A stretch of DNA of 61,763 bases, filler included, from Sluysia triapertura (Eukaryota), in NCBI GenBank assembly GCA_046118255.1. It is 5 parts of 5 records of this genome, joined end to end, with 100 filler letters (N's around TTAATTAATTAA, not from the genome) between each part and the next. Parts side by side here need not be neighbours in the genome. Positions count along the whole stretch, not along the records: positions 13,607 to 25,948 come from JBJNIA010118195.1; 4 more parts are not named here. One strand, given 5' to 3'. A program made the translations under genes and the position numbers. This document shows, piece after piece, positions 7,737-50,700 of the stretch. Below the pieces are notes generated by a model, which worked only from the letters and a program-made list of their open reading frames with translations, was not told the origin of the DNA and did no database searches. The stretch's first letter is position 1. Each line of letters opens with the position of its first letter.

Positions 7737-7738
<2 letters not shown>

Positions 7739-7754
7739 CAATATTATTATAAGC

Positions 7755-8450
7755 ATGCCGAAAATATTTCAAAAACAAATTGCACCTACTACTTCAGTAA
7801 ATAATAGTAAAATGGTTATAGTAGCAAACACCAGTCATGGAACAAAATTTAAATCAAATGAAATACCTGGATTAAATGTTTTACGCTTAAATAATCATTT
7901 TAGTACTCCTGCTGGAATTGATCAAGCAAATATACACAAAAGAATTGCTTGTATTCATAGACCAATTGATGCTACTTTTTTAATAACAGGATTCTTAACA
8001 TTTGGATTAAAGACTTGGCAAGTTATAATTTGTACTAATGCTCCAAATAAAGTTGGAGGGTTTCTAGGTGGAATTGTATTATTAATATCTGGTTTAATTA
8101 ATTTTATCACAGTTGGTGCATTATCCTTAATGATTGTTTTGATCAGACTCTTTGCTTATGTTTCCATTCTTTTTGTGATGCTTTTACAAATAATATTAGA
8201 ATCAATTCATATAAGAAATATTCAATACAATTTATATGTTCAATATAAATCTAATTTAGATGAATGCAAAAATTATGCTTTGTTTTATATGAGTGTAACT
8301 ATTTTAATTGCTTGTCTATTCGCATTTCTTATGGCTATGGCCGGACTAATGCTAACGGTAGATGAATTAATTCTTACTTTAAAATATGATAACTACGTAG
8401 AATCTAGTCAAATTAATTTAGGTCGTGGTTTAGAACATCCGTTAATATAA
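7755..8450 (+). CDS. Intronless four-transmembrane protein, MS4A/CD20-like topology
   Basis: Open 231-aa ORF in very AT-rich DNA with four hydrophobic segments. GFLGGIVLLISGLI resembles the MS4A TM2 pattern. AATAAA lies ~40 nt after the stop. Family assignment is tentative. Confidence 0.7.
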   Translation: MPKIFQKQIAPTTSVNNSKMVIVANTSHGTKFKSNEIPGLNVLRLNNHFSTPAGIDQANIHKRIACIHRPIDATFLITGFLTFGLKTWQVIICTNAPNKVGGFLGGIVLLISGLINFITVGALSLMIVLIRLFAYVSILFVMLLQIILESIHIRNIQYNLYVQYKSNLDECKNYALFYMSVTILIACLFAFLMAMAGLMLTVDELILTLKYDNYVESSQINLGRGLEHPLI

Positions 8451-12163: not shown

Positions 12164-13085
12164 ATTTTAGATTATTATATTCAATTTAGCACTTTAGGGC
12201 TGTATCCCATTACATCAGCTTTCTCCAATTTATTTTATAGTAAGAGTAATTACAAAATCAAAATAGTTATAAATAGTATAATAATTGGAGTTATAAATAG
12301 TCATAAATAGTTATAAGAATTATAATAGTTATAACTCCTAAAATAGTATAGTAATATTAATAGTAGTAAAATAAATATTTTATAAATTTTATAAATGTAA
12401 TTTTTTTGTTTGAATCATTACAATTATAAATTTTTATTCAAGAGACAACAAAAAATTTAGTTTTGCTTATTAAAATGATACATAAAGAAGTGAGTTTGAA
12501 ATATATCACCAATAAATATATAACGGTGATAAGCGGAAAAAATATCTTGGATAATAAATAAAATTCATAGCATTTACAAAACTTGTGTTATGGTTGTTAC
12601 TGAAATATTTTCCTATTTCATACAAAATGTTTTCTTATTTCACTATGGATTCGCCTATAGTTTACGGTTTACCTTTTGACGAGAAACGTACCTCTAGGAT
12701 GGGTGGGTCTGATAAATGTATCCTTTCTTCTGTCACTTGTTGGTATCCGCATAATTACATTCTTAAATTATTTGTGCAATAAGCAATAGTGTCAATGATT
12801 TTTGGATTTAGAGGAAAGTGGATATTAATAATACAAAGTCCTAAAAGCATTAATAAAATAAAAATTAAATGTTTAAATGAAATATGGATTGTAGGATATT
12901 GTTGGGATTGTCCAATTGTGCATCAGGAGATAAGTGAGAAACATATAGAGCTATTAAATCAAGGAAGAACTGAAACAAAGAGATGAATTAAACATTATAA
13001 ACATTGTTGAAATAAGAATCATAAAAAAGAAAATATTTATAATAATGTTAACAGTTAAAGAATAACTTAAGTTCCAATGACCTAT

Positions 13086-13300
13086 ATAAGGTTCGAGACA
13101 TTGTAGAAGCTTGAGATGGATTTGAAGAACTTTTGGAAGCATTAAGATATCTTTGAACTTTAGAACCTTTGGATCATTGAAGACCTTAGTGACCTTTGAG
13201 TATTCTTGGAATATCGATAAGCATTTGAGATCCTTTAGTAACCTTATAAAGTGTATGAAATCTTTAAATTGCTTGAGAAATAAAATCTTTGTTCAAAATA
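13086..13300 (+). repeat. Unclassified dispersed repeat (inverted copy at 49982-50200)
   Basis: TATAAAGTGTATGAAATCTTTAAA..TTGAGAAATAAAATC.TTGTTCAA and upstream sequence match the reverse complement of 49982-50180. Confidence 0.75.
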
Positions 13301-13506: not shown

Positions 13507-13606
13507 NNNNNNNNNNNNNNNNNNNNNNNNNNNNNNNNNNNNNNNNNNNNTTAATTAATTAANNNNNNNNNNNNNNNNNNNNNNNNNNNNNNNNNNNNNN
13601 NNNNNN
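13507..13606. other. Artificial contig linker
   Basis: 44 N + TTAATTAATTAA (stops in all six frames) + 44 N. Confidence 0.97.
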
Positions 13607-14299
13607 ACAATGCAAGACACATGAACAATGACCATTAAAATTATATATTGTGTCATAATTATGTGTTTAATGATTTATTGTCTTACAATAAGACTATTCA
13701 TCGTGATAAAGTATCTCGTATATGCTTAACAACATGTAGGTCCCTATTGTATTTAGTTATTTAACCGGCTCTGTAGTTTCGTATTATTATTTCATTACAA
13801 TTAAACTAAGAAGTATTTTTTATTATTTAATAAACGTATTTATTTTTTGTTTTCATTTTTCCATGTTTATTAATTAATTTATCTTATTTTTAGAATTTTT
13901 GTTTATATAAATACAATATTTTTTTATCACAAATCTTATTTTACTGTTCAAAATAAATGTGCGTATACAATTTTAAATTTAATTATTATTATTTTCGAGA
14001 AATGCTGACAAACTAATAGTATTACCTTTAGTTGTTTTTATACATTTAAATTATACTTAACATGATAATTTTTGCATATATGCTCAAATTGGCGACTACA
14101 AATTAAAGCTTCTTATTATGGTGATCCAATTGATAAGCATAATTTTACAATGTTATTATCATACAATCACCGTATATTCACAAAATATTTAAAATTTTTA
14201 ATTGTAATCAAAGGATTTTAGATTAGCAAATATTCCTTTTTACAATTTTGAAGCAAACTTTAACGAACCTTTTATTTCTCATCACAACTCCAGAATTTT

Positions 14300-15125
14300 T
14301 AAGTTTATTCTATCGATTTCTATTGGCTGATGACTAGTATATAAACTAGCTTCAGCTCAGTATTTTAAACAATTTTATTTACGATTAGTACACACAATTT
14401 TACAAATTAGTATACATGAAATTTTAACAACGTGGTCTTTGTTCGCAAATTATTTGGTTCCAAACTACAGTTTAATCTGCAATTAAATATTTGCAAATTT
14501 TAATTCATTGTACCAATTTCGAGCGAGGATTCCCAACAATATTTACTGCCGAAGGATGGAGGAAATATAATATTTTTCTTTATTCGAATTAAAACTTAAA
14601 ATCCACGTAAATTCACCACCCTGATCTAGTGGGGGGAACTTGTAAATTCTAAAATTTTAAAGTTAAATTGAAGACCCTCAAAGGTTTCGGTTTTAAAATC
14701 AATTATTTTAGCACTATTTCTGTATATCTATATTTGTTATTTAATATAAAATTTTTGTAATAGACTTTACATTTTGTTATTCTATTTGGATAGTTCGATT
14801 TAATAGACCCTCCAATTAGTTATTGTATTAAGTTTTTGAGATATTAGATTACACTATAAGCTACAGAGGTGCCAACTATTAGTTGTAAGACACTTACTGT
14901 AGCCTGACCCTACTCAATTTTATTTTGCCGTAGGTTTAATTCATAAGAAAACCACAGCAGATTTATCAGTAAGACATTAATGGAAAGTTTAGTAAATTTA
15001 AAACGATTAAGTTTTAATAATACGCTCAGGAAATTAGTTTGGTCTTTATAAAATTAATAATGTTTCAGTTTCTTTCAGAAGCCTTTTTAGCTTTTTTATA
15101 AATGCTTAACCTTTTTATACTCTGA
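14300..15125. repeat. Non-coding repeat family 3, copy 1 (LTR-like; TATA inside a hairpin)
   Basis: Colinear with 39150-40100: CTGATGACTAGTATATAAACTAGC and a near-identical block TAAGCTACAGAGGTGCCAACTATTAGTTGTAA...CTCAATTTTATTTTGCC.TAGGTTTA. Confidence 0.75.
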
Positions 15126-15423
15126 CATATATGAATTCAAATTTATACATTATTTTGAATTAAGTAACTGTGATGATGGTTAAGATGTAAAGAATTATAA
15201 ATGTTTTAATTTTCTGGTTTTTTTCTTAAGACAAAAACCTAACTTACACCAAATTGGTTTATTATTATTCAGAGTCCCATTTACGACTTACTAATGGCGT
15301 ACCTGTAAAATTACATGAAAACAATTATTAAGATTAATCGTATAAAAGTACCGGTGATCTGACGGGAATTGTCGATATAAGGTGATGTTGGTGGTGATGA
15401 ACAGGTTACCATGTTATTGACGA

Positions 15424-16460
15424 CTATATCGGCTGGGCCAGGTGGAAGAAAAAGAGAGGGAGGAAATAATTTGCAATTAGGAATAAAGGTAAGTCATGCT
15501 CCCTAATGTAATCAAATAAATGGACCAATTCAGTGGCCATTTTTACACAATCAAATCGCAGCAATACAGGATATAAGAGTTTGAAAGATTGCCAAGATCG
15601 AGATACTCGAAGAAGGTAGAGAAATAAGATTATGATTATTAAGGTTGACAATTCCTCGGATCCATCGGAAAGGAATATGCAGTGTTCTCAAAACCAAGTT
15701 AGGATTGAAAGTAACCAGGATTTTATCATGAAACTTGGCCAAGAAGTATCGTTGAGTATCAAAAAGATCGCTTGCCGTTTTTAGATCGTTTTCTTTATGA
15801 CCATGTACGTCAGTACGGAAGTAGGACATCTGGCAGTAAGAACTGATTTTAGCCTCCATATGATATTGCTTAATATACGGTTTACATGCTAACTGGATAA
15901 TCCTTGGTTTATTCCCAAATCAATAGCGTGATGACAAGCCACAAACAAGAGTCGTTCTTCATCAAAGACGGACAATGGTGGTTTGTGCGTAAAAGAAGAA
16001 CTTCCAGATCTTTTTCATAGGGGCAGGGCAAGAATGAATAAAGATCTCTCGATGGCAACAGGAAAATAAGTGCGAGAGAAGTAGGCAGTTACAATGCTTC
16101 AATATACATAAAGCAACTCATATTTATGTCGGGAAAACAGATCGTCGACATAGCATCAACTCGGAAAGTCAGAGAGGTGTTATTCAAAATAGCAATGACT
16201 TTTACTGAACCACGGCCTACAGCAATATATAAGGTTCGGAAATGAGGTGGTTTATGTCAGATCATTTACGGTGATATGAGATTTCTTAGCAGTGAGAGGA
16301 ATAACATGAGTTGTTCAAAGTCAGACTCACTTCTAAATTTATTTGGGGTAACATGAGAATTAGGAAAGAAGATAGAAAGTTCCATTTCCCCACAATAAGA
16401 ATTTATAGAAGAATCAAAAAGTTTTGCCTGACTCAACCGTTTTGTATTTGATGGGTATAT
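15424..16460 (-). pseudogene. Unidentified decayed coding-like segment downstream of gypsy RNase H
   Basis: Higher GC than the flanks and several protein-like open stretches broken by stops and frameshifts; no recognisable domain. Confidence 0.35.
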
Positions 16461-16587
16461 CGGTATAAACTAAAGTAGGAATAAAACAATAAAATAGGTA
16501 TACATATAAGTAATTATTAATTAAATAATAGTAAGTTTTATCTGGAGCAATTATGGCATATTATAATAGATAACTACATAGGTGATT

Positions 16588-18723
16588 TTAGGAATTATCA
16601 ATCTTTCCCGAAGTAGTCATGATTTGTATAAAACTTATATTACCATTCCCATCGATATTTGTCAGTCTGGACATATAATCTGCTCCACTATTTTGTTTTC
16701 CTGGTTTGTAAATAATTTCTAGATCAAATTCAGATAATTTTGTAAACCATCTATTCAGTCTACTTATTTCCTCTCTAGAATTATATAAGTACGTTAAAGG
16801 TTTATGATCGGTGTATAAATATACCTTTTGTCCTAATAGATAGTGTCTAAATAGTTTACATAAACAATAGCTAAACATTCTCTCTCTATAGTCGAATAAT
16901 TTATTTCAGCCTTATTTAATCTTCGACTAGCGTATGCTATAACTCCTTCTAGATTATTATTATCTTTCTGTCCTAATATTCCACAGATTGCGTAATCACT
17001 CGCATATGTAGTTACGCATCAGGAAAGATAAGTATTGGTGTTGTTGTAAGTATCTCTTTTAAAAGTAAAAATGCATCATTTTTATCATCAGTCTATTCGA
17101 ATTCTACATCATTCTTAGTGAGATTCCTTAACGGTTGAAATATCTTAGCGAAATCTTTTACGAATCTTCCATAATAATTGGCCAATCACAAGAAACTCTG
17201 AACCTTTTTCACATTGTCTTGGATTTGGTTTGATGCCTTCTTCTGACACAATATGTCCTATAAATTCGACTTGTTGTTCTACCCATACACATTTTATGGG
17301 TTTTATTTTTAATCTGGCTACTTCTAATCTTATTAAGATATTGTCGATATCCTTTAAGTGAGTTTCAAAATCCTTCGAAAAAATTATTGTCATCTATATA
17401 AACAATGACATTTTTATAACCTTATAAAAGAAAATTCATGCAACGTTGGAATGTTGCTGGTGCAACTATTAAGCCAAATGGCATTTTCTCGCACTCATAT
17501 AGTTCATCTCCACAAGTGAATGCTATCTTTTTCTGCAATCTCTATTTGCCACTAACCACTGTGTAAGTCGAGAGTCGTAAAAAATGTAGCATTACCTAGT
17601 TTATCCAACATTTCATCTATTCTCGGTAAAGGAAAAACATTTTTTCGAGTTATCTTTTTTAACTCCCTAAAATCTATGCAAAACCTCATTGTACCATCTT
17701 TTTTCTTAACTAGTAATACAGGTTATGAAAAAGGAGAAAAGCTAGGTCTAATTATCGTAGCCTTTTTCATTGTATCGAGTTGTTCCTGCTTTTCTTTTTG
17801 GTTGCATATTGGAATTCTATACAGTTTCCTGCGTATTACTTTATCTTCTACTAATGGTATTTCGTGTTTAATTATAACTGAGTCCCCAATATCGTATTTA
17901 TTTTTTGAGATTACTAGTGGGAATCGATAAATAATATCATATAATTGTTCTTTTTGTCTTCTTGTTAAATTCTTATGTGTGATTTCAATACCAGAATAAT
18001 TTCCATCGTTTATTTCCCGTTGTAATTTTATAGTATTCCCTTTTAATTTATCCGTAATAACATTAACATGTATTACATTATAATTAACGATTCGGTCCAA
18101 TTTCGTACCAGTATATAACCATATGTTATCATTTGTATAATTGATTAATCGGACGGGTATTCTTCCGTAGCATATATTACGAATTGAGTCCGCTATACCA
18201 ATGTCCATTTTCTCTTGGTTATTTTTTGATGCTATAAACATTATTCTGCCAGTTCCTAAACTATTAGACCTTCCAGGAATAATATATTCGCTTCTACTTA
18301 ATAACCATAATGGTTCTTCTCGAAATATACCGTCGTCGTCTATATTCCTACGTGAATAACTGTCCATTAATTTTACCTTATCAAAGTCTAGTACTGCACC
18401 TTTAGTTGTGACAGTATGTCCATACCAATTATCATATCCTCAGGACAACTTTTCATAACTCTTAGTTTTGCTTCAAATTTGTTTTATCTTAATTCACAGT
18501 GTGATTTCATTATACCAATTATGTGGATTGTATCTCCAGTAACACCCGCTATATGTGATAAATTTTCAGAAAGTCCTTTTAATTCTTCACCGGGGAGAAG
18601 ATTTTCATTTATCAGTGATGCCATTGCACCTCTATCAATTAGTGCCGAAATTTTCCTTCCACTAATTCTTATATCGACGATAGGTCGTTTTGCTCCATTA
18701 TAATTATTCTTTGACCAAATCAT
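16588..18723 (-). mobile_element. Decayed Ty3/gypsy pol: protease, reverse transcriptase, RNase H
   Basis: Protease ALIDRGAMASLI; RT IIRPSFSPFS, MPFGL..APATFQR, VYIDD, VEFIGHIVSEEGIKPNP; RNase H FRHYLLG..VYLYTDHKPL...RW...LSEFDLEIIYKPGKQNSGADYMSR. Frameshifts and stops; integrase absent. Confidence 0.95.
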
Positions 18724-18729
18724 ATTACA

Positions 18730-19865
18730 ACATTTGATGATGGTGGTACCTCAGCTGGGTATAATCGTTCCTTTTGATTTTCTTCGATTTCTCTATTTTC
18801 ATAATAGTTGATTGTCTGTAACGCGATGTTTCCATTTTGTTGCGTTTCCTTTTTTAAAGCGTCTATCTGTGAATTCGCATGATGGTGTAATAAATATTTT
18901 ACTAAAAATGGAAAACAACCTATTATTAGTTTCCACGTAAATCAAGAATCTTATAAATTCCTACTATTGAAAATACTTTTAATACAATTAATGCTATAAC
19001 TTTTAATATTATGTAAATACTAATTAATCCGGAAAATACTTGACTTTTTATTAGATAACTTCGCAAAATATGTTTTAAAGTATTATGAGCTGCCTTCTTG
19101 AAATGATCTGGTCCTTATAGTAGTTCGAAATTTATTTGTCCTTCCTTTTCTATTGTGATTTTATCTACTATGTCTGTTAATATCTTAGCCATTCTTATGG
19201 GGAATAGTATGTTTTCTTTAGTATATATACCTGAATTTTGAATATTTTTCGATGCAAAAATTTAAGTTTTCCTCTTAATTTTGTTAACCCTATAATTTCA
19301 GGTTATTTAACTTGTCCTCTATGTGGAAGTGATATCCACAGGTTATCATTAATTCGATATTCCGGTGCCATTACATTGAGCAATGCATGAATTTTGGTTT
19401 GACCTTATCATTATAATATTCTAGTTACGAGTTCTAAATGAGTTTGCATTTCACCAGATAACAAAGGTACTTCATTAGTATATATTTCAATTACAATTCT
19501 ACTTTCTTACATTTGTAAGTACATATATAACTTGTTTTGTTCTCAATATTTCTCTGTTTAATTAACAATCCATGGCTATCATAATGTGGTATCTTTTTTC
19601 TAAAGACATTAGACCTAAATGATAGTAAAAGTCTATCTTATTATTAAAATATGTATTTAATTTTACATCTTTTGGTTCCACTCCTTTTTAGCTTGCAATA
19701 TTGTTTGTTGTGTTAGGTATATCACTTGATAATTGGTTTCCATAATTTCCTTACCACACGGATCATTGTTCCTTTCGATATAAATATTAATCCATATTCT
19801 TCTTTAGTTGCAATTAAAACTGTTGGTGTTCCCTTAACCTTTTTCTCTGTAAAAATTCTGTATTT
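18730..19865 (-). pseudogene. Decayed env-like glycoprotein (chuvirus-like class III fusion protein), C-terminal portion
   Basis: Manual translation across frameshifts gives CGKEIMETNYQVIYL, DVKLNTYFNNKIDF, YKCKKVEL, NEVP, VTRIL, APEYRINDNLWISLP, NSGIYTKENILFP, then a TM segment GLISIYIILKVIALIVLKVFSIVGI and a polar tail. The motif order matches recalled chuvirus-type glycoproteins. Confidence 0.65.
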
Positions 19866-20188
19866 ACTTGTTTTTTATGTAAATATTTTACCGGTAATTC
19901 ATCATCTTTTTGATATAAAAATCCAGAAACTAAATTAAATTTTACTTGCTTTAAAAATATCAGTGGCATTGAAATTTATTTAATTCATAAATTAACTTAG
20001 ATTCTCCGGTATCGCAACTTGTTTGATCGATTCTACATTACGATCGGGATATCATTGTGTCTTTCTCAATATCAAAACTCTCATAGGATTTTAAACTTAT
20101 TGCATAATCTTCATATGCAACTACATTGTGGTCGTAAAAGTGTAGTAAAAGAGACCTTTTTAACGTTTTAGATTGTTCTCACAGGCTC

Positions 20189-20720
20189 TCATTTATTGAA
20201 TAGTTGTATAGTAGTTCCGGTATAAAAAGTGACTGATTTGATTACTTTTCTCGGGTCAATACCTTTGTCAGTTAAAATTGTCGCTGGTTTAATTTTGCAC
20301 CAGTTTATAGTTCGATGTTGTCCAGCGACTGAGATGATAACAGTTTGGTTTTCCTTATTTATGTTTATTACTTTGTACGGGCCTATATATCTTGGCTGCA
20401 GCGAATGAGGATTTTCTACGATCAACCAGACATATTCACTATCGGTGATACTTTGTGGTATGTATACACGCGGTGAATTTTTATGTACTGGTGATTTGTT
20501 TAATTCGCTGAATTATTGTCTTAAATGCTTAGTGAAAATGCACTCTTTTGGCAGCGAGGTTACGAATAATTCGTGTGATAATCTTGTACTTGTACCAAAC
20601 ACGATTTGGGCAGGAGAATATCCGGTAGATGAATGTGGAATATTTCTCCAACCAAGTAGTATAAGAAGCAGTGCATACAATCAATTGTACTTGAGTGATA
20701 TGTTTACCACTCATAAATAG
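20189..20720 (-). mobile_element. Ty3/gypsy integrase C-terminal fragment
   Basis: LGWRNIPHSSTGYSPAQIVFG (end of core) and SLQPRYIGPYKVI (GPY/F motif). Confidence 0.85.
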
Positions 20721-21299
20721 TAAACATATCACATCACAACCCTCACAATTACTACAAATTTTACCACTACCTAAACAACAAAAAAATTCCGTTCACCATA
20801 AAACGTTACAGCCAAACTCTAACAAGTCACCAACCTTGCATAACTCGGTCAAACAACCTCTCCACTGAAACAAACTATATCATCACATGTACCACACAAA
20901 ACCTCCATGTAACAACAAATACCTCACATAAACTTAATACATGAACTCTCCAACACAATATACAAACCAAGAACGTCAAAATAAATCAAGTCACACATGC
21001 ACTTCCATTACAGAAACATTTACCAATAATAAACCATTTCAAAGATTTATATATCATCGTCATCTAGAATATCCACTAAAAATAAAACGCAAAATAAAAC
21101 GAACAAATTTCTAACAAAGGTAATGAAATTGTTTGGTATGGATGTGCCATTATCCGTGGCACATTTAAAATCACGCGATCAGTAAAGGAACTTCCTCTCG
21201 AGGAAATATCGAGGCACTATCCTAACAAAATCATTATATAAGTCTATTCCTAATTGTACTTGGATGACAAAGAGATATCTGTCCAAATCAGATACCTAG

Positions 21300-21830
21300 G
21301 TTTGTAAAAAGAATAATGTAAACAAACCTGAACGTAACATACAAAAAACACGCCACAATGAGGACATAATTTCAAACAAACCGGCATCAGAACACAGCTG
21401 TCACAGTAGCAACAAATCGCAAATCGGCCGTACAAAAACATTCTTCCCACATTATTCCCAGTCGAAACAAAATTCCAAACCAGTGAAAGCAACAAATTAA
21501 ACAAAATCAGCATTACACTTACGTAAAACCAAGACCCGACTACAAATAATAAGGGCGCCCAATTAATGGTGGTAATGGCACGTACGCGAAGATTGGCGAT
21601 AAACAGTATATTCTCAATGCCGCTAACTTTTATTGATTCCCGGTATACGACGTTGGATTTTCTAATTGATATTGGAGCCGCCGTATCAGTTATTCCCAAC
21701 AGTATAATAAATAATACAGCGCAGACCCGATCGTACTTAACAGTAGCCAATGGAACAACTGTGACTTGCTTTGGCTCTCTAAAACTAAAATTTACAATCC
21801 CCCACTTCACTAAAGTATACCAATGGATTA
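21300..21830 (+). mobile_element. Ty3/gypsy gag-end/aspartic protease fragment (CsRN1/Mag-like)
   Basis: FLIDIGAAVSVIP...LTVANGTTVTCFGSLKLKF...YQW; catalytic DTG is degraded to DIG. Confidence 0.75.
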
Positions 21831-24800
21831 TTCACTTTTCAATGACTATCTAGTAATCGACAGTCGATCCAACTTTTGTCAACAACATATCACAGATTAT
21901 AAGTTCCATAACGCAATCATTGCTATGTTTTCGATTAGTTTTTTAAACAAGATTTGTCTCCGTTTCATTAAATCCACTCGGCATAGTTTTAGTGTACTAG
22001 AAGTAGTAATCCCAATTTTAATATACCACTTTGGATTATAAATTACAATTCATAAATATTCAGCCTTTTACTATTCCTGCTAACATCAGCGCACTTACCA
22101 CAAATCATAAGGCTACCTTGACAATTCAAAGCGAATTTCAAAGTTTATCGTCCAATAATTAATCCAATATGATTTTCTTTTCCTAAGTTTTCACCAAAAG
22201 CATGTATATATTTCTTGCGTTTTTATAGCTACAATGTCGCATATTTATTCCATGGTAACAATAAATAAATGAACGATCATTATCATAATACTTTGTTTCT
22301 GTTTCTCAACGAGTTAACTTATAGTCAAAATTTATATTCATTGAATATATCATTGAATAACAGAATTAAGATTGAAAATAAAATAATAATAAAACACATA
22401 AGAAAATAATAATAAAACAATAAACTAACATAAAATTGATACGTATAATAATAATAACGATATAGTGATTATATTATTTATTTTGTTTAAAATTTAAAGT
22501 GAAAGTTGCTCGAAACAAATTGCTGAACTAGGCAATTACAGAAAGATATGAAGTTATAAGTGTAATTAGTTGTAATAAATTATTTGCGTTAAAAATGTGT
22601 CGCAATTTTGAGTTTTGAATATTGCAGGTAAATTATTTGGTATTTTTGAAAGTAAAGTGTGGTGTTCTTTTGAGGCTTGATTTACCACAATATTGTTAAG
22701 AAAGAATCATCTTCTAGAAAAATAGATCATTTTTTAAATTGCAAGTACAGTGGCAAGACATGGTAACAAATAGAAATAATATTTTCACTAAGGAATTTTC
22801 AACAACAATAAACTTAAAGATGCATTACTCTCTCGTGAGTTCCGCACATAGAAACAATTTCTCAGAATTCTATGGAAGCTTCTGCTTTTACTTTTGAGAT
22901 TTATAGATTTCGCGATGCTTGTATAAAATTACATTTCTTAAGTTATTACTCAAATGTCATCTTTTGACCTTCATCTACACTTTAAACAAACAAATTAATT
23001 CTTTAACATTGTTCCATCGTCAATTTCATTCGCATTACTGCGAATTTTTATTATATATAATGTAATATTGAAACGAATCATATTTTGTTAATTATAACTT
23101 TTCAAAAAATCTATAATTTTCTAGTTTGTTCATGACTTAATGAATGTACAACGCATATTCATAAAATAATAGTCATAAAAATAATATCAGATTAATTAGA
23201 AGCTGTCTTAATTAACATTTTTATGTTTAAATTGTATATTATATGCTAAAATAAATTTTATATATTTAATTTTAAGTAATTGATCTGTAATTGATTTCTA
23301 TTAAACTAATTTTTGTATTTTTGAATATATTTGTTTAAATTTACCAAATAAATAATAATAAAATGAAAATATAAAAATATTTTATCTGCTTTCCTCAAAA
23401 ATTAATTCATATAGGTTAAATACTATAATTATATTAAAAAGGAATTATCATTTATTACTTTTTGTCAGTTTTTTTAATTTATAACGCATATTAAAATATG
23501 TTTTTAAAAAAATTAGTTTTAAATCAGTTTTATCAGACATATATATATATATATATATATTTGTTAAGTATTATTGAAATGGAAAAATAAAATTAATATA
23601 TTATCAATATTATTACCGTTGTTGTTTTTACAAATATTATTGCAAATAACAGCATCAGAACTATCCTACTAAACTTCCTTTAACATATTTCCTATTACTC
23701 TTCAGTCATTAAGAAAATTGTTAACTATATATTTCCTTTACTTTTAATTTGATCATGAAATTTGTTTACCAGCTAATTTTAGGCTGATGTTTTTGTAATA
23801 GATAAAAGAGATTCAGTGATTCTTTTTTTTGCTTTTTCTCTCTTTATTCAACTAGATGAATCAATTTGTATAATATAATTGTTTTGCTTTTTAAAAAAAA
23901 ACGGAATTTTGTCAGTAATCCTGGCATTAAAAACAATAAAAATATTACAAATCAAAACCCTTAAATTATTTAAAATTTAATAATAAAAAAAATATTCTAA
24001 TTAATTTTTCATTATTAATATTAAGATGTTAGAAAATATTCAAAAAATTAAATTTCTAAAAGTATTGGTGGTTTAATATTATAATATTATAATTATTATT
24101 ATGATTAATATTATAATTAATATTATAATTATTAATCTGTAAATTATAAAATCATTTTTAAATAAAAACAAAACCAATGATAATTATTGTTACAAAACAA
24201 AACAATTTTTATATTTAGTCTTATTATCATAATGGACTAAATAAAGCAATGGATTTATATGATTTATTTTAGTAAAATTATCACTATCGAATATATTTTG
24301 AAACCATAACATATGAAAAAGTTTGTTCATGCCAATGTCACAATAAATCAATATGTTATGATTTAATGATATTTATCAGATATTTTTCATTTAAGAGATG
24401 TCTGCTTTTTCGAAATTTATGTTAATAATAATAAAGATAAGTAAAAATATCTGAGATTATTAGAAATTTCAAACATTAAATAAAATCAAACCACTATGAA
24501 TTGATTATTATCGATTACATTAATAATAATAAATGTACAATCACATTTTTTTATTTTTTATTTTCAAAAATTCAAAGGATTTATAAAAGTCATTTTCTAT
24601 TGGCTACTAACCGAAGATAATCGTTCAAATTATGTAATAAATTAAGTTATGTCATTATTTTTAGGACATTTGCCAGTGTTAATGAATCAAAATTGATTTC
24701 TAATTCCAAATAAATAAAAAATATAACTTTACGATTAAGATGAAACACATAAAAGTATAAAAAGTTAAATAATAAAAGTTCTTTTTTCATTTCATTGTAT

Positions 24801-25948: not shown

Positions 25949-26048
25949 NNNNNNNNNNNNNNNNNNNNNNNNNNNNNNNNNNNNNNNNNNNNTTAATTAA
26001 TTAANNNNNNNNNNNNNNNNNNNNNNNNNNNNNNNNNNNNNNNNNNNN
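25949..26048. other. Artificial contig linker
   Basis: 44 N + TTAATTAATTAA + 44 N. Confidence 0.97.
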
Positions 26049-29006: not shown

Positions 29007-29684
29007 CGGTCCAAAAACTAACCGAACCGCAAACGTAAATAAAAATTAGATGTCACTTTATGTTATCTTCGTTCTATTCATTTCCTTCTGAGAATAGTAG
29101 TCTTTGGAATGACTTTTGTTGCGTGACTGATCTTGTTCATTTTGTTCTGACGTCATTGCTTTATTTTTGTTCAGCGTGCGGTTTTGGACCCTCATTCTTA
29201 AAAATGCAGCAAATGACTTTAGATTTAAATAAATGTATCTTCGTTATTAAGAATTACTATGCAAGGACTAGCTACAAGCATGGTGTAGAAAGATGCTCAA
29301 ATGCTCCTAAAGAAGGTCGTTCGAAAACAGAAATAAAGTGACAGCTGCATTTGTTCATTATCCTAAAAATCTATCCTCCAAACATCGAAAGAGCTTAACA
29401 TTTCTCGAACCATATCTTACATAACATTGGTCTAAAACCTCATCTTCTTCATACCCTAAATGAGGATGACCCGGATAAACGATTAGAATTTTGTACAATT
29501 TTTTGAAGAATCAAATTTTCAGATTTCAGAGCAAACTTGCCAGAAAGTATGTCGCAGTGTTGTCAAAAAATGTATTTGTATTGAAGTTCACAAGGTTGAC
29601 ATTGTGAACATATACTTATTAAATTTGTTGTTTTTGATATCTAATTGTTATTTAAGTTTGTGGTTCGGTTACATTTGGTGGCCA
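29007..29684 (+). mobile_element. Internally deleted Tc1/mariner-superfamily element
   Basis: TIRs TAACCGAACCGCAAACGTAAATAAAAATTAGAT and ATCTAATTGTTATTTAAGTTTGTGGTTCGGTTA; transposase relics CIFVIKNYY and LNEDDPDKRLEFC. Same family as 45578-45988. Confidence 0.8.
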
Positions 29685-41830: not shown

Positions 41831-42119
41831 TGATAAAAATAAATGTTTCTATTTCTTCGATAAAATAAATATTTTTTCATAATTAATTAAATTTGATTAA
41901 ATTTGTACTTTTTAATTAATTAAATATTTTAATAGTTTCAATTATTTTAACATTTACATAACGAACTCAGACGTTATCAGAATGTACCAATTCAGTGGAC
42001 ATTTTTTCAACGCATTTTGATAAAAATACATTAGTAAGAGAACAACTCAGAGATGAATAGATAAAGCAGAAAAATGATTTATTTAAAAAATGGAAAGGAA
42101 ATCCCTATTATATTATACA

Positions 42120-42570
42120 AAATGATATTTTAAAATTTCATATAAATAGTAAAGTACTAATAGTAATATTAAAAATAATATTTTTCATGAAAGTCACGTC
42201 AAATTTCGAAGGACATTTGTCTGTTAGGAAAAGATACCATTGGAAAAATATAATTGGCGTAATAATTGTGAGATTTGCTTACGAATAAAGGGTAGAAAAA
42301 TACAAAACTTACCTGAAACTTATTCAAGATACAGCTGTACCAATGGAAATACTGTCATGGATATTGTAGGTCCGTCGTTGCCTGAAACTATAAAAGGAAA
42401 TAAATATATCTTAGTATTTTCGAATTATTTTACAAGATGGTCAGGGCCAAAGATTTTCATAGAAGTAATGGATACGGATCAAGGTACAAGGTAATGTTAC
42501 AAGTGAAATGGTAACAGAAGTTTGTAACTTTTTCCAAATTAATAAAACAGCAACGTCAGCTTATCAGAGC
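42120..42570 (+). mobile_element. Ty3/gypsy integrase fragment
   Basis: GHLS, CEIC (zinc-binding), MDIVGP.LPET.KGNKYILVFSNYFTRW and TDQGT. Confidence 0.9.
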
Positions 42571-43604
42571 CAGTGTTTAGATCTAAAAAAAGGATTGTAT
42601 CTCACATAAACAGTTATATGTTGCGTGTTCTATAGTCGTCAAATCAGGCGCAAATAATGGAACAACAAAAATTATTGTATACCCAAAAACACTGTGAAAT
42701 TAAAAATATTTGAAACGAGCGCTTTCTCCTTTTTCTTTTATATTATTATTATAAAATGAATAATAATAGTAATAATAATAATAATAACAATAATAATATT
42801 TGTAAAACTTAATAATGTAATTATTGATAATATTAATAATAATGGAAATAACAACAATTTTAATAAAAGTCGATAAGCGGATAAATCGTGTACGACATTT
42901 TAGATGGTGTAATAAAAAATCTGTTTAGCGTATAAAATTGATTAAAGTAATAAAAATGCTTTTGGTAAAGTAATTTTGAAAATCTGTTATTGTAACATAT
43001 TATTTGAAGTCTTGCGATTTAAATTAACTGACATAACGCAAGAAATATTATTTTAATTAATTGTAAAAGTTATTAACACATAGTAGAATAATTGGATAAA
43101 CCAGAAACATGTATAAAATGAATTTTAAAAACTCCGAAATAAAAAACAAAAATTTGTAATTAATGATATAGGTAATGGTTTTAGTAGTATTATCGATTAA
43201 AGATGGTGAAACTATAGACTTCATGCTTTTCTAAATGCATCGAGATGGCTTTTCTAAAAATGTTTATATAAAAATATAGCATAAAATAAAAAAAATAAAT
43301 TATTTGAATAAAGTATATGTAGATTTTCAAAGATGTAAAGTCACGAATCATCATCATCATATTATACAATGTTATCACTTATAATTGAAGATATAAATTA
43401 AATGATTCAATAAGTTCCGAAAACCAAGCGGGACAACTGGTACTAATAAAGAAAATGAACAGTTCTGTAAGTGTAAAAATTGTGTCAAAAGTCTTAATCA
43501 TTTTAATAATGCAGATAATTCACAGAAATGTCTAAAATATATGGAAATTACAACTCTATCTCCGAAAAAATTATTATATTAAATGATTAATACAATGATT
43601 GTAT

Positions 43605-45577: not shown

Positions 45578-45988
45578 CAGGTGTCCCAAAGTAACCGAAT
45601 CACAGACTTAAATAAAAATTAGATATCAAAAACGACAAAAGTTCAAAATGTAAACCCTGAACTTCAGTACAAGCACATCTTTTGACAACACTGCGACATA
45701 CTTTCTGGCAAATTTCCTCTGAAATTTGGTTCCATTCATGCTGAGTTCTTTATTTTAGTTGATTCATTGTCTTAAGCTTTTCAGCAGAAGCTACGTTCTT
45801 TAGTAATTCTTAATAACGAAGATATGTTCTTTCATTCAGTGCATTTTTAAGAAGCGCGCGCTGAACAAGACTACTCGCAGAAGGAAATGAATATTAGCGA
45901 AGATAACATAAAAAGAAAAAATTACACTTGTCGCTTTCGATATCTAATTTTTATTTAAGTTTGGGGTTCCGTTACTTTTGGGACACTG
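45578..45988 (-). mobile_element. Tc1/mariner-type MITE
   Basis: ~60-bp TIRs (CAG(G)TGTCCCAAAGTAAC...TTAGATATC), TA after the right end; internal sequence is the reverse complement of parts of 29007-29684. Confidence 0.9.
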
Positions 45989-49981: not shown

Positions 49982-50200
49982 ATCTTGAACAATGATTTTA
50001 TTTCTCAAATATTTTAAAGATTTTATACACTTTATAATATTACTCGAAGATCTTAGATACTTATCAAGGTTTCAAGAATACTTAAAGGTTAATAAGATCT
50101 CAGATGATCTCAATGTTCACAAGCTCAAAAGCATTCTAATGCCTTCGAAATGTTCCACAAGGTCTCAATACCTTATGTAGGTTTTTGAAACTCTAAGGTA
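49982..50200 (-). repeat. Unclassified dispersed repeat (copy of 13086-13300)
   Basis: Reverse-complement similarity over ~200 bp. Confidence 0.75.
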
Positions 50201-50354
50201 TTCTTCAGCTGCTAGCCATATTATAAATGTTTTTACTTTCATGATTCCCACTCCGACAATTCTTATAAAGCTCCATCTATCACTTCGCATCAACTCTTTC
50301 TTCATTTTGTAATTCTCTGTCTTTTACTCATCTCCTAATTCACAGTTGAAAAAT

Positions 50355-50700
50355 CTCAACATGAATAATGCAGTGAAGAGAGAAGCATTTCAGAAGCTAC
50401 ACTTGAAAGAAATAACATCAACAGTGCGTGACGCAAAGAAAGGTTATCATCATATCTTAATACCCATTTGTTCCCGAAATATTTCCAAAATGTACGGAAC
50501 ATATTATAAATGATCTTAATGGTGTCTATAAAAAAGGCAATGCCCATTAAAATATTACTTTAAAAGATTAGTGTTTGCGAAGCGGATATCCGATAAACAT
50601 ATGTTTATTGACCGCTTTCTTTAGATAGCCCTGATCGATTATGTTGCTTCATTATCCAAGTGATATGACATGACGAAAAATGGAAGTAGTACATAAATAA
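50355..50700 (-). mobile_element. hAT (Charlie/SPIN-like) transposase relic
   Basis: LDNEAT (DE.TD equivalent), DIRF, and SLHCIIHVE (CxxH motif). Confidence 0.65.

Follow-up and report, generated by a model that had tools for sequence, protein, structure and literature searches.

Among the closest described systems are the giant gypsy-like LTR elements Burro/GYPSM1 of planarians. In the account by Arkhipova & Yushenova 2019 (PMC6431247, with Jurka 2007 and Grohme 2018 cited therein), their env sits between gag and pol, shares the reading frame and matches mononegavirus fusion glycoproteins. The same account describes a dUTPase-like domain between protease (PR) and reverse transcriptase (RT) of Burro, modules of the Bcl-2-like and ankyrin kinds, and decayed remnants of Burro, carrying stops and frameshifts, in Dugesia japonica. 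The accessible sections of Chary & Hayashi, eLife (PMC13524379) report gB-type env genes on gypsy elements across animals, with the order GAG-ENV-POL in flatworms, nematodes and bryozoans and env-gag-pol in two mites; in these sections env-before-pol order is reported for non-insect hosts only. Nine flatworm elements are included, six of them from Schmidtea (Smed_errantivirus_1-6), the published gB-type flatworm elements being intact and present in 1-215 copies, and in arthropods 114 elements are reported with a chuvirus-like glycoprotein next to gypsy POL. How gB-type errantiviruses enter cells is called unknown in those sections. Chuviridae-like glycoproteins carried by mosquito BEL/Pao elements (Dezordi 2020, PMC7642597) and insect Jingchuvirales glycoprotein insertions with flanking gypsy fragments (Dezordi 2023, PMC10084718) are described in the accessible parts of two further papers.

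The stretch of DNA analysed here (hereafter the window) comprises 61,763 nucleotides, filler included, from the assembly of Sluysia triapertura (GCA_046118255.1). It is AT-rich (GC 0.25) with few long frames, and has N gaps at 13507-13606 and 25949-26048, with none lying within the studied region. This region is, with high probability, a decayed internal fragment of a Ty3/gypsy element (env, protease, dUTPase-like domain, RT and RNase H), most likely of the planarian Burro-like gag-env-pol kind. This reading is supported by the domain order, by collinearity with natural polyproteins encoded in a single frame and by the fold of a relative, which is of class III. Other features of the window include a 237-codon stop-free frame without a Pfam match (7737-8450, plus strand) and two inverted repeat pairs that are apparently unrelated to the env element, one at 12900-13299 and 49982-50361 (71% over 402 bases) and one at 29520-29678 and 45586-45728 (81% over 159 bases).

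The decayed class III env (gB/Monjiviricetes-G type) was located on the minus strand at 18720..20133, using PF24664, a profile of its relatives and tblastn of those relatives, and in the window it runs from the second half of domain I to the stalk, followed by a C-terminal membrane helix and a tail. Six motifs had been noted in order on the minus strand. A motif scan with six-frame translation recovered all of them in that order, namely CG..I.ET (19758), NTYFNNK (19657), KC..V (19514), VTRIL (19428), AP.Y.I....W...P (19368) and SGIY....I.FP (19234), although the last two needed one more wildcard each, as neither matched in the window in its originally written form. KC..V is by itself unspecific, with six further minus-strand matches within the window. 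The frameshifted gene with a transmembrane helix and tail that had been noted was likewise found, the hydrophobic helix lying at about 19045-18960 (with a start near 19033 by translation and motif scan) and the tail ending at 18720 (six-frame translation and motif scan).

With the env-region frames read whole and stops entered as X, frame 18929-19261 matched PF24664 (Monjiviricetes_fusion) at 29.2 bits against a curated cut-off of 27 bits (E 3.1e-7, profile 471-579). Frame 19501-19687 gave a weak match at a collinear place (E 0.088, profile 300-351), and PF24664 and the rest of Pfam found nothing in the other four of these six frames. Among the stop-free pieces of the env region, one of nine matched Pfam (PF24664), below the cut-off. 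A profile built from 18 natural relatives was also run against the whole window in six frames, and its 11 top-scoring stop-free pieces (5.4-50.8 bits) were collinear over 20133-18944, compared to 5.0 bits for the best piece of the reversed window. The env therefore starts some 270 bases upstream of 19865, where its limit had first been set. As the pieces cover positions 146-584 of 588 in the profile, the first ~145 positions of the ectodomain are missing, and 6 of the 14 conserved cysteines of the relatives fall within this missing part. The N-terminal membrane anchor is also absent from the window copy, which thus has an incomplete ectodomain with its C-terminal helix retained. Decay of the remainder is evident from about 8 frame switches by profile placement (fewer if the weakest pieces are left out), at least 7 in-frame stops counted in alignments to relative P0004, a short internal gap near 19510-19480 in the profile alignment, and a longest env-homologous stop-free frame of no more than 73 codons.

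Since the env of the window is broken, its fold was approached through a natural relative (P0005), modelled with an 18-row alignment; the model was uneven (mean pLDDT 59.5, pTM 0.40). Searched against the PDB with Foldseek, it matched glycoprotein B (gB) in all of the listed rows, with HSV-1 gB the best at E 6.6e-11 and probability 1.0, at identities of 7-12% and TM-scores by query length of 0.13-0.22. Against viral models, the matches were glycoproteins of chuvirus-like and other Monjiviricetes viruses (best E 3.6e-34, 20% identity), the ten best being 16-20% identical with TM-scores of up to 0.36 by query length. The fold class is supported by these matches, and the low TM-scores indicate that the model overall is not good. 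A profile search of PDB sequences returned only proteases among the best 60 of 218 matches, and no fusogen among these. The original prediction of a class III fusogen related to those of chuviruses and herpesviruses is thus borne out by profile and structure checks of the kind it had proposed (the significant PF24664 match and the Foldseek match of P0005 to gB): the env is real and, as judged from domain profiles and a relative's predicted fold, belongs to the class III fusogens of the chuvirus/herpes-gB kind.

On the same strand, the env lies in front of its pol (PR at 18715-18400, then RT, then RNase H to about 16657). A retropepsin-type protease with a degenerate catalytic motif was identified at 18400..18715 (Pfam RVP, E 1.1e-7), its start at about 18715 following directly behind the end of the env tail. 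It is succeeded by a 238-codon open frame (17723..18439) that comprises the PR-RT spacer and runs into the start of the RT, and that is 35-40% identical to the corresponding spacer and RT start of relatives. A predicted model of this frame (pLDDT 54) gave dUTPases in 31 of 31 listed Foldseek matches in the PDB (best E 5.9e-4), suggesting a dUTPase-like fold, while Pfam and PDB searches by sequence were blank for a dUTPase in the spacer. The RT itself (17190..17770) is broken, with YIDD present, and was recognized by RVT_1 on two pieces and by translation; it is 37-63% identical to that of relatives. The connection and a gypsy-type RNase H occupy 16657..17190 (RT_RNaseH, E 1.3e-16 and 6.1e-11). 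By sequence, this order of PR, RT and RNase H with a gypsy-type RNase H is that of a Ty3/gypsy (Metaviridae) element, as had been proposed.

Homology to the relatives stops at 16657-16618 (tblastn), and no Pfam match to an integrase was obtained behind the RNase H in six frames of 14900-16651. No gag of the env element was found in the window copy, no LTR-like pair was found flanking the env-pol region, and a search for a tRNA gene gave none. The lack of an integrase and LTRs in the window copy lowers the case for a whole element and leaves the Ty3/gypsy family call unaffected. The window copy is inert, having lost gag, the front of env, the integrase and the LTRs and having acquired stops and frame switches. 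Beyond the RNase H, 14000-16650 is a high-depth repeat with coding-looking but decayed plus-strand frames at about 15350-16400, for which Pfam gave no match within 14900-16651. Elsewhere in the window, a separate decayed gypsy integrase piece (42010-42573, plus strand) is 55% identical to residues 1879-1944 of relative P0012, with no Pfam match in its three frames.

A second piece of gypsy pol adjoins the env on its other side. At 20134..20700 on the minus strand, the C-terminal tail of an integrase was identified (GPY-like motif and SH3; SH3_11, E 0.002, below the cut-off), with a coding part at 20698-20189 and about 55 bases after its stop. This tail may resemble the CsRn1 lineage. With an integrase tail upstream and pol downstream, ownership of the env was ambiguous and was for this reason tested through relatives. 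In addition, the env and the protease stand in different frames in the broken window copy, and a single env-pol frame is consequently deduced from the relatives.

A phmmer/HMMER search of 1.84 billion representative proteins with the env piece gave 18 matches, 25-43% identical (E 1.8e-12 to 1.9e-4), all 18 with PF24664 above its cut-off. Ten of the 18 carry a protease after the env in the same protein, and env and pol also share a single frame in P0020, P0022 and L001. Six of the remaining eight are fragments of 75-215 residues, and two (P0005 and P0006) are without a Pfam protease. An RT or integrase before the env was seen in none of the 18. The complete order env-PR-RT-RH was present in P0004, P0012, P0013, the cluster members P0020 and P0022 and a 3426-codon frame of L001, and it was followed by an integrase (IN) in all of these except P0013. 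In tblastn, these six long polyproteins match the window in the same order, from the env through to the RNase H. Spacings also agree: the membrane helix and the protease are about 132 codons apart in the window and 120-185 residues apart in seven of the nine relatives in which both patterns could be located (360 in the remaining two), and the distance from protease to RT is about 319 codons in the window as against about 304-311 in relatives. It is this arrangement in the relatives that decides the linkage of the env to the downstream protease and RT. The gag-pol-env order that had been assumed is not upheld, as the relatives have env and then pol in one polyprotein; the attachment of the env to a gypsy element is confirmed by the ordered RVP, RVT_1 and RT_RNaseH matches and by the fusion of env to pol in the relatives.

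Further modules were noted among the relatives: P0009 and P0025 have CCHC knuckles upstream of the env, P0005 has a weak Bcl-2 match, and P0022, of 4844 residues, has ankyrin repeats. In P0004, P0006, P0012 and P0020 the ectodomain has a hydrophobic segment on either side, and a simple hydropathy scan did not find the segment before the env in P0005, P0008, P0009, P0011 and P0022. Env relatives were present in at least one metagenome contig, and none were found in viral contigs. Word-based protein searches among longer proteins, using the env piece and the PR-RT spacer, gave no match, which is weak evidence.

The design varies widely among the database relatives, in that protease-like repeats number from one to several and additional membrane modules occur past the integrase. 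P0004, P0008, P0009, P0011, P0020, P0022 and L001 have two or more protease-like domains after the env, with up to six protease motif sites in P0022, and P0006 contains two env stretches. Long C-terminal extensions with hydrophobic segments continue beyond the integrase in P0004, P0012, P0020 and P0022, and a separate 496-codon frame stands behind the polyprotein of L001 (10617-12107, plus strand). P0012, a 2627-residue env-PR-RT-RH-IN polyprotein, has an NCBI entry as a 'hypothetical protein' from a metagenome bin of Flavobacteriaceae and is probably animal DNA within a bacterial bin.

The alternative that survives best, though it is very improbable, is a canonical gag-pol-env element in which the env belongs to the upstream integrase tail, with the protease and RT derived from a second element and a different gypsy lineage having gained the env. 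The integrase C-terminus does lie on the same strand and end about 55 bases before the env homology, at the canonical site for an env. However, it is at this junction that the first ~145 ectodomain positions of the env are missing, pol precedes the env in none of the relatives, and the spacing from env to protease is that of the relatives. Furthermore, identity between this tail and the tails of env-pol relatives is only about 20%, and its GC is 0.36 versus 0.28 in the env. A diverged contig (59 differences) that covers the tail from 20499 leaves at 20133, the position at which the env homology stops, although it overhangs by only 17 letters. Depth in the bin that spans the junction of integrase tail and env dips to 14,184, compared to 70,571 and 30,955 alongside. 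On account of the low identity, the GC difference and the departure of the contig at 20133, the tail (20134..20700) most likely comes from another gypsy element, which borders on the truncated env. On the plus strand, 21033..21850 (GC 0.36; translation) belongs to a second gypsy element and not to the env element, with a protease at 21527-21850 (Asp_protease_2, E 0.14, weak) and what is possibly a gag remnant, assigned by eye. Within 20134-21850, the minus-strand integrase tail and the plus-strand gag-like and protease pieces share a GC of 0.36 and face apart, and are possibly parts of one rearranged second element.

That the env is instead a stand-alone endogenous chuvirus glycoprotein gene among gypsy debris is hardly credible. 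Insect insertions of this kind flanked by gypsy fragments are common according to the accessible part of PMC10084718, and the best predicted-structure matches of the modelled relative are chuvirus-like glycoproteins. Against this, the nearest sequences to the env (25-43% identical) include the 10 retroelement polyproteins that join env and protease in one chain, whereas the modelled relative is only 16-20% identical to its ten best viral matches; in addition, no viral nucleoprotein or polymerase domain was present in the pieces scanned from 14900-21850, no env relative was found in viral contigs, and the depth of the env tracks that of pol. The relatives with env and pol in a single frame thus largely refute a stand-alone viral insertion.

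Env genes have been domesticated in other animals, but that this env now serves the host as a fusogen is, barring assembly errors in this copy, almost certainly wrong, given its roughly 8 frame switches, its stops (at least 7), its 5’ truncation and its lack of any homologous stop-free frame longer than 73 codons.

Contig depths were obtained from one public run, possibly the source of the assembly. Summed depth, which does not equal copy number, was 47,600-159,400 over 16672-20011, for pol and env alike, and about 37, a single-copy level, at 20680-21347. Most of the matching contigs were 80-95% alike to the window copy, and at many of the listed sites nearly all of the depth differed from it, a pattern to be anticipated where a large family has a decayed member such as this one. 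A 345-base contig with zero differences spans the env-protease junction, which is therefore not a scaffolding artefact in that run.

The decayed gag-env-pol fragment favoured here is probably, from sequence comparison, a member of a family not yet listed in databases, as it is 33-43% identical to its nearest database relatives. In intact members, a single polyprotein would cross the ER membrane twice, at a hydrophobic segment in front of the ectodomain and at the helix behind it, with Gag and Pol staying cytosolic and the Env ectodomain being luminal. The element's own protease or proteases, together with host peptidases, would release the parts, and Gag-Pol would bud at membranes bearing Env trimers. 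Through Env, the particle would then fuse with adjacent cells, which would probably be germ or stem cells. It is unlikely, while by no means negligible as a prospect, that the window copy is what remains of one member of a compact, single-protease gag-env-pol family of very high copy number, not yet listed and with intact members in this species, which would form enveloped particles with a gB-like fusogen lacking partner glycoproteins and spread between cells into stem or germ cells. If this were true, Sluysia triapertura would be a direct model for cell entry by the gB-type envelopes of retrotransposons. A single dead copy in itself matters little and constitutes a further record of flatworm gag-env-pol elements with a gB-type envelope. 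The question it touches, whether and how a lone gB-like fusogen in a retrotransposon polyprotein drives entry, is already in print in the accessible sections of PMC13524379. In a search of mostly open-access literature, no listed paper dealt with Burro particles, as judged by title and the start of the abstract.

Comparison with the described systems shows that the design is real and not new, being that of Burro and of the flatworm gB-type errantiviruses. The suggestion of a previously undescribed enveloped gypsy lineage is consequently not sustained, given the gB-type env genes on gypsy elements in the accessible text of PMC13524379 and PMC6431247, and its premise that gypsy env is derived only from baculovirus F has been overtaken by the former. 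Elements of the Pao type carry a pol with the Peptidase_A17 family. No match of this type was found in the window pieces or the relatives, in which gypsy-type RT_RNaseH was found instead. Mosquito BEL/Pao elements differ in belonging to an element family other than Ty3/gypsy, while they and the arthropod gypsy elements share with this locus the same Pfam family and class of envelope fold on an LTR element. The glycoproteins G of Chuviridae and other Monjiviricetes and herpesvirus gB have the class III fusogen fold and PF24664 in common with the env; these are separate viral genes, in contrast to the env of the relatives, which is part of a retroelement polyprotein. The gB-type errantiviruses of Platyhelminthes are alike in having a gB-type env before pol. 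In the accessible alignment of PMC13524379, the six Schmidtea rows agree, as judged by eye, with the window in their domain I-II motifs, with a 7-residue motif common to Smed_3, and about 18 of 49 residues of Smed_3 are identical by eye to the upstream frames of the window, which suggests the same kind of element and another family. The label 'planarian' for the host is a tentative one, based on this by-eye likeness to Schmidtea env rows. The Smed_errantivirus elements are described there as intact, whereas the window copy is dead. Burro resembles the locus in its env before pol and its dUTPase-like domain between PR and RT, and resembles the relatives in CCHC gag, Bcl-2-like and ankyrin modules; it differs from the window copy, a fragment of 3.5 kb whose one protease is placed directly between the env and the dUTPase-like spacer.
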